Below, one piece after another: positions 10,971-31,239 of a DNA stretch of 33,993 nucleotides; position 1 is the first letter of the stretch; each line of letters begins with the position of its first letter. Origin of the DNA: Patescibacteria group bacterium (lineage in GTDB: Bacteria > Patescibacteriota > Minisyncoccia > UBA6257 > HR35); contig JBBTQG010000003.1 of the NCBI GenBank assembly GCA_038065795.1, positions 1 through 33,993 on the forward strand, written 5' to 3'. Both the position numbers and the translations under genes were made by a program. The notes beneath the pieces are model-generated. The model was not told the origin of the DNA. It worked only from the letters and a program-made list of their open reading frames with translations, and made no database searches.

Positions 10971-12101
10971 TTATTTTTGTATTGCTTCTAATCCCGGTAA
11001 AGTTTCATTTGCTAAATAATTTAACATCGCTCCGCCACCAGTGGAAATAAAATCAAATTTGCTATGAAGCTTGTGTTTATATAAAAATGAAATTGTATCT
11101 CCTCCGCCAACGATTGTAAAATTTTTCATCCTTACTAGTTCTTTTGCAAACAATAAAGTTCCTGCTTCAGATTCTCCATCAGAAAGTTTTGCAAATGGTC
11201 CATTCCAAACAATAATGTCCATTTTTTTTAATCTTTTTAAAAATATTTTTATGCTTTTTAAGTCTGTGTCATCGTTGACTTTTTGCGGGATTAAAATTCT
11301 GTCATTTTCTATTTGGTGTGTTTCAGTAAATTCTTTTGCGGTTAATCCACCTAAAACAATCAAATCCGCTTTGTTTAAAAATTTTTTTATTAAAGGCAAT
11401 TTTGTTTCAATTTTCGCTCCACCAATCACAATCGCTAATTTATTATCACTTTCAAAAACTTTGTTTAAGTTCCTTATTTCATTTTCGAAATTTATTCCAA
11501 AATACGAAGGTAAAAATTTTGGGATTTCAATAATTGACGCGTGATTTCTATGGCTAACAGAAAACGCCTCATTTACAAAAACATCGGCAAGTTCGGATAA
11601 ACTTTTTGCAAATTCAATATCGTTTTTTTCTTCGCCTTCAAAAAATCTCAAATTTTCTAAAAGTATAAATTTATCATTAGGCAATGCCGAAAATGACGGA
11701 AATGACGAAAAATAAGTTTTCGTCATTTCCGTCGCTGAAAATGAATTATCATTTTCAGCATTATTTTTCGGCGCTAAAAACGACTTATCGTTTTTAGCGT
11801 TTTCTTCATACTTCCAATTCACAAACTTAAATTCTGGCAGATACGGAATAAATTTTTCCAAAGAATAATCTGCGTATCCACGTTGGTCAGCATATGGCGG
11901 TTGTCCTAAATGTGAAATGAAAATAATCTGTTTCGCTGATTCTAAGAATTTTAATAAATCTTTTGCAATTTTAATTCTGTAATTTTCAATCTGCGTAAAT
12001 CCGCATGTTTCAATATTGAGATCAACTCTCACTAAAACTCTTTTGTCTATAATTTTGTTTATATTCTTGCTTAATAAATATTTGTTATTTAGTTTTACCA
12101 T
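10971..12101 (-). CDS. pgk: Phosphoglycerate kinase, with in-frame repeat insertions
   Basis: RVLVRVDLN, ISHLG, LLENLRF, VNEAFSVSHRNHAS, GGAK, VWNGP, VGGGDT, ISTGGGA. Confidence 0.95.
   Translation of the reverse strand: MVKLNNKYLLSKNINKIIDKRVLVRVDLNIETCGFTQIENYRIKIAKDLLKFLESAKQIIFISHLGQPPYADQRGYADYSLEKFIPYLPEFKFVNWKYEENAKNDKSFLAPKNNAENDNSFSATEMTKTYFSSFPSFSALPNDKFILLENLRFFEGEEKNDIEFAKSLSELADVFVNEAFSVSHRNHASIIEIPKFLPSYFGINFENEIRNLNKVFESDNKLAIVIGGAKIETKLPLIKKFLNKADLIVLGGLTAKEFTETHQIENDRILIPQKVNDDTDLKSIKIFLKRLKKMDIIVWNGPFAKLSDGESEAGTLLFAKELVRMKNFTIVGGGDTISFLYKHKLHSKFDFISTGGGAMLNYLANETLPGLEAIQK
11685..11798. mobile_element. 114-bp multi-hairpin element (GCCGAAAA/GCTGAAAA family), in frame in pgk
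   Basis: Hairpins GACGGAAATGACGAAAA/TTTTCGTCATTTCCGTC, GCTGAAAATGA/TCATTTTCAGC and GCTAAAAACGA/TCGTTTTTAGC; a homolog lies at 29636-29731. Confidence 0.85.
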
Positions 12102-12172
12102 TTTACTTGATAGTATTATAATGCTAATCCTTGAACGGGCTTTAGCCCCATAACAAGAATTTATTTTTCAAT

Positions 12173-13841: not shown

Positions 13842-13857
13842 GATTATATGAAAATTA

Positions 13858-14338
13858 TAAGGCATAGAATAAGCCGGATTTTGTCTTGCCCCGCTTAGCG
13901 GGGTGAAGTAGTCATCTATCTAGCCATAAACTTGCGTTTATGGTCAAGCGGTACTCCCAGCACCATAAATGATGCTCGATACGACCTTGAACCCAGAACT
14001 CAAAAACCGCTACGGCAAAATTGCTTTTGCCGAGATGACGGTAGCAAAAGAATGAATGATTTCACACCCGTCAACTTTTCACCTTTTTTACTCCGCTAAG
14101 CGGAGTCGTAGTATTGTCTCTGTGATTTTTGTCAGACATTACTGCCTGCCTCCTTTTAGGGGGATTCACTCGCGCACCCTTTATACCATTATTACAAGGA
14201 GATATTACCGATAAAACAATGTGCCTTCATTAGATATAAAGGGTGCGCGATGGGTTTCCGGACTTTCCTCCTATCCGTAGTTTTTGTAAATTAAAAATTT
14301 ACAAAAACTACGGATAGGCGACCACTTTCCATACCTTA
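13858..14338 (-). ncRNA. rnpB: RNase P RNA (expanded, about 480 nt)
   Basis: Minus strand has GAGGAAAGTCCGG (P4 5' side), ACAGAGA and GGTGAAA conserved regions, and 3' GACAAAATCCGGCTTAT. P1 is TAAGGTATGGAA/TTCTATGCCTTA. Confidence 0.92.
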
Positions 14339-14520
14339 ATATAATTATATCCCATATATTTGCTTTTTACAATTTTTTGGGTATAATTTGAGTATCGTGG
14401 AAGTCAGTCCACGCAGTATTTAATATATTCATAAAATAATTAAAACGCCGAAAATAATTTATTATTTTTGGCGCTGAAATTTGAAAATGTTGAATTTTCA
14501 GATTTCAGCTTTACTGAAAA

Positions 14521-16564: not shown

Positions 16565-16683
16565 TAATAAGATTTACGCGTTAATATATTTAATTATTGT
16601 AAAATAATAAAGCATAAAATAACAAGTTGTTTTGGGCTTTAAAAAACAGATTTTTGACAATATTGTTATTTTAGGTTATAAAA

Positions 16684-19610: not shown

Positions 19611-20485
19611 AAGGATTTACAATTATAGAATTTCTTTTATACATTGGAATTGCGGGGATTTTTATTGCAATAATATTACCGATAATAACCAGAACTATAA
19701 AAAGCGTTTCGTATTATCAGGCAAAAGTAAATGTGCGAAACGAGTTTTCAAAAATTTCTCAAAAAATAATGCAAGAAAGCCAAAATGCTGATAGTTTGAA
19801 TATTTTGCCTAATTGGGGTATAATATTCTGGAAGGGCAATGAGTATTTAGAGCTCAGAGTAACAAAGCCGAATCTAATAAGCGGGACAAAGCTTACTGGT
19901 TATGCATGGAGTTATCAGGTTGGAGGAATAGCCTTAAATGGGACAACAACAGAACAAAGCCCAGAAACTTTTCAAGTTGAAAGAACGGCAAATTCAGATT
20001 GTCAAATAACAATAGATACGCCAGTGAAAAGCAGTTTTTTATATGATGGTTACGCATGGTCTCCGAATATAGGTTGGATTGATTTTAGAGACATGAGCGG
20101 GCAATCAGAGTATGGAGTATGTGAGCAACCAAATGGCGATTTGCGTGGTTACGCGTGGAATGATGTAATTGGCTGGATTAGTTTTAATTGTATAGATTCA
20201 AATGTATGCGCTACGGCAAACTATAAAGTAAGTCAATCAAATGGCAGATTAATAGGAAACGCCTATAATGATGTAATTGGTTGGTTTAAATTTGATGGCG
20301 ATGAAGAGAAAATATATTTATGGGATGGTGGAAATGAAGAATTATTTACAAATGAATTTGTGAAAGTAAAAAATCTTAATTTTGAAAATATAGGAAAAAC
20401 AACAAGATTTAATTTAAGTATTAGCAATATAGACGAAACAAAAACTTTTACAGGAACCTCGACATTAACAAGATTTAGTAAATGA
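19592..20485 (+). CDS. Prepilin-type protein with G(Y/N)AW...IGWI repeats
   Basis: KG|FTIIEFLLY; four repeats GYAWSYQVGGI, GYAWSPNIGWI, GYAWNDVIGWI, GNAYNDVIGWF. Confidence 0.8.
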   Translation: MATRKLKGFTIIEFLLYIGIAGIFIAIILPIITRTIKSVSYYQAKVNVRNEFSKISQKIMQESQNADSLNILPNWGIIFWKGNEYLELRVTKPNLISGTKLTGYAWSYQVGGIALNGTTTEQSPETFQVERTANSDCQITIDTPVKSSFLYDGYAWSPNIGWIDFRDMSGQSEYGVCEQPNGDLRGYAWNDVIGWISFNCIDSNVCATANYKVSQSNGRLIGNAYNDVIGWFKFDGDEEKIYLWDGGNEELFTNEFVKVKNLNFENIGKTTRFNLSISNIDETKTFTGTSTLTRFSK

Positions 20486-24515: not shown

Positions 24516-24635
24516 CAAATTAAATTGCCAAAAATGATGCCCAAAAATATATTTTTCGGCGCATAAAATAATTAATTATTTTATGCTTTATCATTTTTGG
24601 CTCTGAAAATAACAAGTTATTTTCAATGTTTTAAA

Positions 24636-28840: not shown

Positions 28841-29098
28841 TTATGGACTTTTTGTGATTGAGTGAAGACCAATTCGCCTGATAATAAATTTATCGCCTGT
28901 AATTTTGAATGTAAATCGATAATCCTTGCTAATTCTTCCTTCCCAAATGTCGATTACCCCGTGAATTTTCTTTGTGTCCAATGAGGGATGATATGGATTT
29001 TCTGAAAGAAATTTTAATTGCTTGTCTGTTCTAATCTGAATTTGTTTCGGCAATTTTTCGTAATCTTTCTTGAATGGGTCAGTTAATATAATTTTCAT
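28841..29098 (-). CDS. RelE/ParE-superfamily toxin
   Basis: FKKDYEKLP...NPYHPSLDTKKIHG..IWEGRISKDYRFTF..RRIGLH. Confidence 0.85.
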   Translation of the reverse strand: MKIILTDPFKKDYEKLPKQIQIRTDKQLKFLSENPYHPSLDTKKIHGVIDIWEGRISKDYRFTFKITGDKFIIRRIGLHSITKSP

Positions 29099-29107
29099 TC
29101 AACCCAA

Positions 29108-29353
29108 CTATTTTTTTAATTTATCTAGCGCTTTTTTTAATTCTTTCCAATTTTTATAAGGACCACTAACTTTACCATTCTTTATAGCAATGTCAGCTTC
29201 TCGTTCTTTTTTTTGCCATTCTTTTGTCCAAAACCAAAGCTGGTCTTTATCAATTGAATTATAAATACTTTTTAATTCATCGTATTCTTTTTGCGGAACA
29301 ACAACAAGTGCTCCTTTTTCTGTTAAATTTTTTGGAATAGTTATTGTAACCAT
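29108..29353 (-). CDS. Putative antitoxin
   Basis: TITIPK N-terminus; DQLWFWTKEWQKKEREAD..IKNGKVSGP; directly upstream of the toxin. Confidence 0.75.
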   Translation of the reverse strand: MVTITIPKNLTEKGALVVVPQKEYDELKSIYNSIDKDQLWFWTKEWQKKEREADIAIKNGKVSGPYKNWKELKKALDKLKK

Positions 29354-29388: not shown

Positions 29389-30061
29389 TTAATCTAAAAT
29401 TTGGAATCCGACTTCGGGGCTGAATGCCGCAAGTGTTTTATCATTTGCGGCGCCAAAAAACAAGTTTTTGGCTTTGCGGTGAAGAGCGTCGGTTTTAAAT
29501 AAGAATATTTCTAATGTCCCGCCAACGCTGAAAATAAACAAAGTTTATTTTCAGCCACGAAATTATATTAAATAATTCTTAATTAATGAAATTTCGCGAT
29601 TTTAATTTTTCAAGATGACCGGCAAAAGATTCGAATGCCGAAAAGCCCAAAGATATATCTTTGGGCGCCGAAAACGATAAATCATTTTCGGCATTGTTTT
29701 TCGGTGCTGACAGCGATTTATCGCTGTCAGCTTGTTCGTTTGAAAATGTAATATGAGTATGAATATTAATATCTAATCAGTGTTGGTCTGCGTGTAGTCC
29801 GCGCGAGTCTGCGTCCTTGAGACTGATTTCGCCTGTAATATTTGAAATTTCCATAGAGCCATTAAATTCTGAGGAATGATATTTTTTGTCGTTTATATCA
29901 ATATACGCAACTTTAATATATTACGCGTTTCCTAATCCAAAAAAATATCCACCAAAAATTTTCCATTCTTTGAGAAAATTCATAAATTCTTTATTTGGAT
30001 ATTCTTCGTTTAAGTCAAATCGCAATATCCAATCCCCGGGTTTTTCAAGAATTATTTTCAT
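29389..30061 (-). pseudogene. DUF296/PPC-domain protein pseudogene with four repeat insertions
   Basis: Hand translation: MKIILEKPGDWILRFDLNEE...GYFFGLGNA*YIKVAYID...EFNGSMEISNITGEISLKD[ins]NIHTHITFSNEQ[ins]FESFAGHLEKLK[ins]VGGTLEIFL...HRK[ins]FSPEVGFQILD*. The HxH and GHL motifs are those of the PPC family. Confidence 0.85.
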
Positions 30062-30605
30062 TTTTTAAAAGTTTTAAAAGATGCAGTGTATTACCTCGCT
30101 TAAATGTTTCCCACGCAGATTCTCGTTCATTAAAATAATCCTGAAGAATTTTACTTTTTTCTTCGTCAGTAAAAATAACACCTCCGCCTGTAAATGCGTT
30201 TATAAATGTTGTTTTTTGATAATTTATATTATTAAGAGTTGTTGCCTGTTCAGGATTTTTTAATTTAATAACAATTTCATATGGACTGCATAAATTAATA
30301 GAAAAATCACTTTTTTCTTCAAAATAAAAGCGTCTCGTTTTGTTTGTTTTTTCAACATCTCCGTCTACCAGTGTGGTCATTGGTGTATTTCTATCCAAAA
30401 TTCCAGCTTCATTTGTTCCAGACCCAATTAAAAGATGCTCAAATAAAGTAAGCGTGTTTTGAAATCTATATAAACCAGTATTTTCATCTTCTAAAAGCAA
30501 GTCATCTCTTTTTTTCATTAACTCCTCGAGTGATTTTTGTTTAATCCGTTGTTCTTGTTCTCCTGATGTCTTTTCTAAATTTGTACTCGGTGTTCCTTCT
30601 ATCAT
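30045..30605 (-). CDS. Hypothetical protein
   Basis: 186-aa ORF; no motif recognised. Confidence 0.65.
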   Translation of the reverse strand: MIEGTPSTNLEKTSGEQEQRIKQKSLEELMKKRDDLLLEDENTGLYRFQNTLTLFEHLLIGSGTNEAGILDRNTPMTTLVDGDVEKTNKTRRFYFEEKSDFSINLCSPYEIVIKLKNPEQATTLNNINYQKTTFINAFTGGGVIFTDEEKSKILQDYFNERESAWETFKRGNTLHLLKLLKNENNS

Positions 30606-31106: not shown

Positions 31107-31239
31107 TATAATACTGAAAATTTTTTACATCAAGTTAATTTTTTAATGACGAATTTTCAGCGTGAAACTTTACAAAATTTTGTATAATTTATTTAAAATA
31201 AACAACCGTAATTTATTATAAGAAGTTTCACATAGATTA

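Follow-up and report, generated by a model that had tools for sequence, protein, structure and literature searches.

The pgk locus and its insert

The window analysed here, a stretch of 33,993 bases, is the whole of contig C3 from the genome of a Patescibacteria-type groundwater bacterium (581 kb in 56 contigs, 33% GC). Its gene for phosphoglycerate kinase (PGK), pgk, contains an insert of 38 codons that is predicted to fold into a composite of hairpins and is very likely one copy of a hairpin repeat family dispersed through this genome. The stretch is present in 11 runs from 5 studies, none of them listed as an RNA run and all groundwater metagenomes wherever the habitat is on record, and the named database homologues of the PGK are from Patescibacteria or Parcubacteria. 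The host gene and the insert are placed as follows.

10971..12101, minus strand: pgk, phosphoglycerate kinase, the host gene, 376 aa (Pfam PF00162, 7.7e-69; full-length alignment to the PGKs of relatives)
11683..11802, minus strand: composite hairpin element in pgk (bounds from the alignment with a 95%-identical copy at C40:18942-19061)
11685..11798, minus strand: inserted codons, 38 aa, PGK residues 102 to 139

The inserted codons translate as AKNDKSFLAPKNNAENDNSFSATEMTKTYFSSFPSFSA, exactly as an earlier note on this DNA had read them, and lie between ...WKYEEN and LPNDKFILLENLRF. That note had predicted a gap of 38 residues at this point in orthologous PGKs, and the prediction is borne out. 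A MAFFT alignment shows a gap opposite the insert, directly before LPNDKFILLENLRF, in 19 of 19 family- and order-level PGKs, and the three closest homologues from a collection of 5.8 billion proteins likewise lack the insert, with a gap of exactly 38 residues. These three proteins have 332, 351, and 350 residues and show 67, 64, and 52% identity in the alignment; the nearest one, at 67%, shows a BLASTP identity of 58%. Mapping onto a known structure, the Thermus PGK 2ie8, also leaves the insert unmatched: phmmer aligns query residues 20 to 108 with chain residues 12 to 102 and query residues 139 to 272 with chain residues 102 to 236, while PGK residues ~103 to 138 are without a partner.

The host enzyme retains the invariant PGK columns, ENLRF, GGG(D)T, and STGGGA among them. 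In an AlphaFold2 model based on a 20-sequence alignment, the mean pLDDT is 83.3, and the sole segment with a pLDDT below 50, residues 102 to 129, lies inside the insert. The most economical reading of this model is a tolerated, disordered loop ahead of the ENLRF strand. A segment of the C-terminal domain (GGLTAKEF...) is shortened; the nearest homologues have this feature too, which indicates a trait of the clade and not decay. A PGK search of metagenome contigs for close relatives with an empty site returned 34 loci, none of them close, with identities of 27 to 34% except for five short partial matches (39 to 54% over 54 to 93 residues).

Contigs from one metagenome run, which belongs to a study other than the probable source, cover positions 10985-11721, 11692-11755, and 11743-12150 with no differences and bridge both junctions of the insert. 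An assembly artefact is thereby ruled out. That these contigs break off inside the insert is expected of a repeat.

Fold and architecture of the two inserts

The pgk element is built from three hairpins and an outer stem.

11772..11799: hairpin A, 12-bp stem CGCTAAAAACGA/TCGTTTTTAGCG (hairpin scan; covariance-model match of 52 bits, E = 9.9e-11)
11734..11759: hairpin B, 11-bp stem GCTGAAAATGA/TCATTTTCAGC, encodes AENDNSFSA (hairpin scan; covariance model)
11695..11733: hairpin C, 17-bp stem, GACGGAAATGACGAAAA... (hairpin scan; fold)
11686..11772: outer stem, GCCGAAAA (11686-11693) with TTTTCGGC (11765-11772) (minimum-free-energy folds of both strands)

The outer stem encloses hairpins C and B, leading to a three-way junction. 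The predicted fold energy on the mRNA strand is -64.2 kcal/mol, and the segment shows a period of 39 nucleotides (nt), or 13 codons, combined with dyad symmetry. The earlier note paired this insert with a second one, located in what it took for a gene of the DUF296 family.

29579..30061, minus strand: PCC-domain ('DUF296') pseudogene (translation; Pfam PF03479, 4e-09, stops read as X)
29636..29731, minus strand: composite hairpin element in the PCC pseudogene, 32 codons, of the same build as the pgk element
29706-29731, 29667-29692, and 29645-29666: hairpins of this second element, with an outer stem formed by 29637-29644 and 29698-29705

On either strand, both inserts consist of one hairpin followed by a three-way junction in which the outer stem GCCGAAAA/TTTTCGGC surrounds two hairpins, and both end in ...TTTTCGGCA|TT, in line with the shared modular order and common end described in the earlier note. 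The fold energy of the second element is -56.3 kcal/mol on the mRNA strand. The two inserts are significantly similar: their local alignment scores 36 (z = 17.7), while 2000 dinucleotide shuffles average 8.8 ± 1.5 and never exceed 16. The score of 36 is attained by 2 of 2994 random genomic 96-mers, and those two are probably other copies of the family.

The host of the second insert is a decayed gene. It contains two in-frame stops (TAA at 29921-29923 and TGA at 29777-29779) and ends early at 29579-29581, ~35 residues short, and intact PCC open reading frames (ORFs) of 138 to 150 aa are found in 7 of 24 relatives; these features identify it as a pseudogene. The insert translates on the minus strand as ADSDKSLSAPKNNAENDLSFSAPKDISLGFSA and is in register with the remains of the gene. 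By eye, it stands between ...SNEQ and FESFAGHL, where the relatives read ...ISGHLKEL. The register claimed by the earlier note is correct, but its 'DUF296' gene is not a working one.

Two further observations concern this region. Positions 29780-29826 of the pseudogene form a GC-rich stretch of ~12 codons (KDADSRGLHADQH), which has no counterpart in the relatives' ORFs and may be a fragment of another repeat. Adjoining the repeat-rich pseudogene region, the minus strand of 28841-29353 contains an ORF for a ParE-like toxin (85 aa, PF05016, 5.6e-05) and an upstream ORF (81 aa, no family), probably a toxin-antitoxin pair.

A genome-wide family of modular hairpins

The module of the family is a perfect or near-perfect hairpin of 21 to 40 nt with the conserved foot GCYGAAAA...TTTTCRGC. 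The units occur singly, abut one another, or are nested in one another's loops, and the arrays are often flanked by AAT...ATT. A composite of 96 to 120 nt, made of a hairpin and a three-way junction, is recurrent. Nesting is exemplified by the 22-nt module GCCCAAAGATATATCTTTGGGC, which lies within the GCTGAAAA/TTTTCAGC stem at C11:4166-4203 and is found elsewhere beside other modules. Another copy, at C13:33448-33544, follows a dnaX-type gene.

The genome contains 61 GC-footed hairpins with stems of at least 9 bp, compared to 7, 5, and 2 in three dinucleotide shuffles. The pattern GCYGAAAA-N6-16-TTTTCRGC occurs at 28 sites and its reversed control at none. A covariance model, for which 24 hairpins of 26 nt served as the basis, yields at least 132 matches at E <= 0.01, which correspond to at least 75 unique modules at at least 59 loci; 150 of 1946 candidates were scored, so these counts are a lower bound. 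Within the model, pairing is seen in 96% of the stem cells, and both sides are changed in 31 cells, compared to 9.0 in shuffles, values that carry little weight and are partly true by construction, as the 24 hairpins were chosen for pairing.

Some copies are nearly identical. The pgk copy shows 95% identity over 120 nt with the copy on contig C40, which lies directly upstream of an IF-2-like gene (infB), a designation read from the GTPase motif. The copy in the PCC pseudogene shows 91% identity over 98 nt with C56:19248-19345, inside parB, where the other strand reads NAEKPKDISLGAENGKSFSALTFGAESDLSLS. Such identities between copies at unrelated loci indicate that the copies are recent. For the earlier note's view of an active family they are indirect support, but no presence/absence polymorphism was seen. 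A duplication of the pgk region was considered as the source of the C40 copy and rejected: the copy lies upstream of the IF-2-like gene, which matches the ComM-like gene neighbouring pgk in the window only weakly and locally (23% over 94 residues, E = 0.016).

A GC-richer repeat of ~200 nt is present in three copies, at C32:~19770-19990 (in tgt, the gene for queuine tRNA-ribosyltransferase), C13:~30270-30500, and C56:~11450-11660, each of which contains a two-hairpin unit of the GCYGAAAA family. The tgt copy is in frame; the ORF comprises 478 aa, and its Pfam TGT match is split in two.

Among the genomes searched, the family is restricted to this one. At E <= 1e-4, the covariance model has 110 matches here and finds the family in none of 24 genomes of the same taxonomic family. 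In 300 other genomes of the same order, 18 contain 1 or 2 pattern matches and none contains more, with the control in the same range. The pattern of a two-module junction occurs 9 times in this genome and once in each of 16 scattered, unrelated genomes out of 185,579 species genomes. The genome is the sole member of its genus among those compared.

Copies inside genes and their coding logic

The loci were assigned to a gene set of 615 longest ORFs, in which the coding fraction is 0.89: of the 59, 28 fall inside ORFs, 4 at ORF edges, and 27 between ORFs. This is the count of coding and intergenic copies, based on a covariance model, that the earlier note had proposed. Genic copies are fewer than expected from random placement (28/59 against the coding fraction of 0.89; p = 3e-15), and their share is far above that usual for REP-type repeats. 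Two censuses combined give 27 hosts, each an ORF with 186 aa or more, and a Pfam family is assigned to 22 of them. The identified hosts are the following.

Metabolism: PGK and transketolase (tkt)
Translation: GatB, ArgS, a Val/Leu/Ile-type class I aminoacyl-tRNA synthetase, IleRS, PheT, and ribosomal protein S9 (rpsI)
tRNA modification: TsaD, Sua5/TsaC fused to a histidine phosphatase domain, and TGT
DNA: PriA, GyrA, ParB, and a frame of LexA plus D12-methyltransferase
Cell envelope and other functions: a Mur ligase, three glycosyltransferases, a HAD hydrolase, an RNase H-like protein, and a TPR protein

The insertion was checked against homologues for PGK and TsaD, and for the other hosts it is taken from the continuity of the ORF and the Pfam coordinates. 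In TsaD, query residues 23 to 51 face four residues, a turn, of structure 3zet. Every copy in a recognisable gene has an open frame and a length that is a multiple of three.

The palindromic module begins with GCN GAA AAY, and either strand, read from its own 5' end, encodes A-E-N-D-(K/L)-S-F-S-A. The same peptide results from both orientations because the modules are palindromic. The central residue, K or L, is set by the orientation of the loop (GATAAATC versus GATTTATC), and both types are about equally common in ORFs. ORFs with 150 aa or more contain 30 modules; phase 0 is used by 24 of these, phase 2 (PKTINRFR-type) by 4, and phase 1 by 2. Phase 0 is stop-free in 127 of 140 module-strands, compared to 114 for phase 2 and 28 for phase 1. 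Its use in 24 of 30 modules thus exceeds the 47% expected from open placements (p = 2.4e-4, an optimistic value, like the other binomial one, as modules of one element are not independent). The phase-0 bias together with the shortage of coding copies indicates selection on the encoded peptide. Stem mismatches on the sense strand are symmetric, with 12 G-T and 10 A-C, and thus give no sign of selection for an mRNA-specific structure.

To judge from the sequences, the inserts are probably translated as floppy surface loops. The earlier note saw them as adding peptides to core enzymes; the open frames are consistent with this proposal, but one of the two hosts that it named is decayed.

Two hosts show additional features. 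A single frame of 544 aa at C26:2762-4396 contains LexA, with its DNA-binding and S24 peptidase domains, and a D12 adenine methyltransferase. A two-hairpin element is positioned exactly between the LexA and D12 domains (...VIRNFENTK-PKSAVALFGDKNDKSFLSFS-LKPKALFEMPSK...) and may have fused the two genes by in-frame bridging of the spacer. The gyrA gene at C42:3545-7237 contains an intein with a LAGLIDADG domain (Pfam Intein_splicing, LAGLIDADG_3) and also carries a two-hairpin element near residue 1062.

Relation to known repeat systems

Rickettsia palindromic elements (RPEs), in the form of RPE-1 and its relatives, are palindromic repeats of ~150 bp that occupy intergenic positions and also interrupt housekeeping genes in frame (Ogata et al. 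2000, as cited in PMC10969869). The analogy to them drawn in the earlier note holds for a dispersed family of 75 modules at 59 loci that is in frame in 27 ORFs. Like the RPEs, the family is a dispersed palindromic repeat in a reduced genome, both intergenic and in frame in many unrelated housekeeping genes. It likewise encodes a conserved peptide that is apparently compatible with the host fold, and it has no linked transposase. Insertion where the fold tolerates it is a further RPE-like trait, suggested by the predicted pLDDT below 50 of PGK residues 102 to 129 and by the alignment of the TsaD insert to a four-residue turn of 3zet. In contrast to the ~150 bp of RPEs, the units are hairpins of 21 to 40 nt and composites of 96 to 120 nt with a modular, nested organization, and they are near-perfect palindromes, both orientations of which encode the same peptide. 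The host here is a Patescibacteria-type groundwater bacterium and not an alphaproteobacterium as for the RPEs. The likeness is one of behaviour, with no sequence relationship shown. A scan of the two insert peptides against NCBIfam at E <= 1 returned nothing.

REP, BIME, and REPIN sequences with their RAYT transposases are described as short, extragenic hairpins with a GTAG or CGTC tag at one end (PMC3116915, PMC3337134, PMC3733652). The family shares with them hairpins of 20 to 40 nt, a high copy number, a conserved foot, and the formation of mosaics. RAYT-like Y1 transposase genes with hairpins at their flanks are present in this genome as well. Contrary to the extragenic REPs, 28 of the 59 loci lie inside ORFs and 4 at their edges. 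No GTAG or CGTC tag, as defined in PMC3733652, was found in the 24-module alignment, where the flanks read AAT|GC or TTCGGC|GC. A further difference from REP-RAYT systems is that the hairpins next to the RAYT-like genes are CCCGWCGGG-centred and not those of the GCYGAAAA family.

PARCELs are amphipathic tandem repeats of 25 residues recognized by the DUF285/TIGR02167 models. Their ORFs, which as a rule do not belong to the housekeeping set, are of unknown function and often encode membrane proteins; intergenic PARCELs are not reported (PMC2996958). The family resembles them as a dyad-symmetric coding sequence that adds repeat peptides, but its period is 13 codons, its hosts are conserved enzymes, and it also occurs between genes.

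A full-text literature search with the terms palindromic-element, MITE, REP, and REPIN found no paper on such elements in Candidate Phyla Radiation (CPR)/Patescibacteria. The behaviour is that of the RPEs, and the element is distinct, being shorter, modular, nested, perfectly palindromic, and independent of orientation in its coding, in a host of another phylum.

Spread of the family and alternative explanations

The pgk insert is very likely a copy of a lineage-specific, non-autonomous hairpin repeat family, read here as selfish REP/MITE-type DNA with RPE-like behaviour. Copies would have spread through the genome and landed within and between genes, and a copy within a gene would persist only if it keeps an open frame and its length can be divided by three. 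Either orientation, in the same phase, would then lead to a short hydrophilic peptide, which PGK would tolerate as a disordered loop. The spread itself may have occurred by transposition of single-stranded hairpin DNA. Two genes come into question as its driver.

C10:10436-11128, plus strand: RAYT-like Y1 (HUH) transposase gene, ~230 aa
C49:2845-3534, minus strand: paralogous RAYT-like Y1 (HUH) transposase gene, ~230 aa, 59% identical to the former

The two genes match PF01797 with 41 and 33 bits and NF047646 with 66 and 58 bits, below the cut-off of 80, and a reading of their translations shows HUH-type and Y-type motifs. Y1_Tnp is the only one present of four transposase families searched in the genome; rve, DDE_Tnp_1, and OrfB_IS605 were not found. 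As the obvious driver of the family, the RAYT-like genes are supported neither by their flanking hairpins nor by their distribution, and mobilisation by them is rather unlikely. Together with the CCCGWCGGG hairpins around them, they resemble the classical REP-RAYT arrangement, here within a genome of 0.58 Mb.

Several points weigh against the proposal of a mobile, peptide-encoding repeat family. Both RAYT-like genes are flanked on both sides by a different long hairpin, centred on CCCGWCGGG (e.g., CCTAACCCAAAAATGTACGCCCGWCGGGCGTACATTTTTGGGTTAGG) and present at 17 sites genome-wide, and such genes also occur in 3 of the 24 relatives, which lack the GCYGAAAA family. No target-site duplication was recognised at the copies, and the AATGC...GCATT (AAT/ATT) ends are found at 18 of 44 arrays on the 5' side and 16 of 44 on the 3' side. 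Contigs of 4 runs show no empty-site allele, joint, or indel at pgk, a result that is little informative because contigs drop rare variants. Translation and retention of the pgk insert are predictions from the open frames. The assignment of copies to ORFs depends on a crude longest-ORF gene set, and both the covariation counts and the binomial p values have the limits given with them above.

On their left side, the copies are flanked by A-rich sequence similar to the 5' arm of the element itself, as in GAAGAAAAC|GC of pgk. Copies may have spread through an HUH enzyme that transposes single-stranded hairpin DNA in trans or through template switching free of any transposase. Copying without a transposase, by template switching during replication or by hairpin-primed synthesis at GAAAA-rich microhomologies, is somewhat unlikely and competes with the mobilisation step only; DNA synthesis in an AT-rich genome would then yield the repeats as by-products, and they would be no transposon. 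It agrees with the lack of a recognised target-site duplication, with A-rich left flanks that look like the 5' arm, with modules placed directly after the GCYGAAAA of other modules, and with stems that grow through nested palindromes, as well as with the absence of rve, DDE_Tnp_1, and OrfB_IS605 genes and the different hairpins around the RAYT-like genes. However, a composite of 120 nt copied at 95% identity between unlinked loci is easier to understand as the movement of a discrete unit, and the family occurs in one genome among 24 of the same family and 300 of the same order, most of them similarly small. A further reading is a currently active, new type of single-stranded DNA hairpin transposon, which would insert with a preference for GAAAA-type sites, the loops of its own copies included, would have evolved phase-locked palindromic coding, and would be driven in trans by the RAYT-like enzymes. 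Insertion into the loops of its own copies would lead to nested stems and three-way junctions, and a harmless peptide independent of orientation would let the element colonise essential genes in a genome with almost no intergenic space. This version is clearly unlikely; if true, it would be the first RAYT-type system working inside coding sequence.

The remaining alternatives concern the nature of the inserts rather than their spread. Removal of the inserts by RNA excision or ribosomal bypass, as with the yeast mitochondrial 'byp' elements, would leave the proteins unchanged and fits the very strong mRNA-strand fold of the pgk insert (-64.2 kcal/mol), but it would not need the open frames and multiples of three seen in all copies in recognisable genes, nor does it go with the phase-0 bias (24/30) and the deficit of coding copies. 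No gene split by a stop-containing copy was found among the 6 same-strand ORF pairs checked at the 27 intergenic loci; 5 of these pairs belong to different Pfam families and 1 is without a family. Removal is accordingly very improbable. The same low probability is given to hairpins that benefit the host as RNA or DNA signals (terminators, mRNA stabilisers, or protein-binding sites) with incidental genic copies. The 27 of 59 intergenic loci, some of them near gene ends, and the high stability of the hairpins would suit such a role, but the T-run sits inside the 3' arm and none follows the stems, about half of the loci lie in ORFs, and the G-T and A-C mismatches are symmetric (12 versus 10). In addition, the family was not found in the searched relatives that share the same genes, and there is no Rfam match to it in the window or the tgt repeat locus. 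An expansion in place of an intragenic, PARCEL-type tandem-repeat domain would account for the 39-nt (13-codon) period and the dyad symmetry of the pgk segment; the same 120-nt unit is intergenic on contig C40, relatives of it lie in unrelated genes, and neither DUF285 nor TIGR02167 is among the Pfam and NCBIfam matches of the hosts or insert peptides, which makes this explanation extremely improbable.

With the selfish hairpin repeat as the preferred explanation, RPE-like behaviour would have arisen independently, and more densely, in one of the smallest known genome sizes. It affects ~27 of some 615 ORFs, among them genes for enzymes of glycolysis, translation, and replication. Translatability in either orientation thus seems to let a repeat persist where intergenic space is nearly gone (coding fraction of 0.89). 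For essential enzymes, among them PGK, TsaD, GatB, PheT, and GyrA, the copies amount to a natural collection of loop insertions that are tolerated. Such repeats also break metagenome assemblies, as seen from the contigs that end within the pgk insert, and the lengthened proteins could be misread by annotation pipelines as containing lineage-specific domains.

Other copies in the window

Besides the two inserts, the window contains the following copies.

14446..14509: two-hairpin copy, intergenic, ~108 nt upstream of the RNase P RNA gene (covariance model; fold z = -6.8)
16612..16637: degenerate single module, weak (covariance-model E = 0.0016; fold z = -2.8)
24527..24633: composite copy, intergenic, a three-way junction and a hairpin in mirror orientation (fold of -28.1 kcal/mol, z = -8.1; covariance-model matches)
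29425..29472: two-hairpin relative, intergenic (DNA fold of -16.4 kcal/mol, z = -3.6)
29527..29555: single-hairpin copy, GCTGAAAATAAAC... (hairpin scan, foot pattern, covariance model)

The last of these was absent from the relatives listed in the earlier note. Of those that were listed, the copies at 14446-14509, 24527-24633, and 29425-29472 are upheld and the one at 16612-16638 is weak. A proposed member at 31114-31161 is unsupported, with a fold z of -1.4 and no covariance-model match, and was rejected.

A search of the window and of the tgt repeat locus on contig C32 against Rfam at gathering thresholds returned RNase P RNA and tRNAs only. The RNase P RNA gene (class A, 132 bits; 13854-14338, minus strand) has a length of 485 nt compared to 367 positions in the model and holds a perfect hairpin of 24 bp at 14268-14320; it probably carries an insertion.

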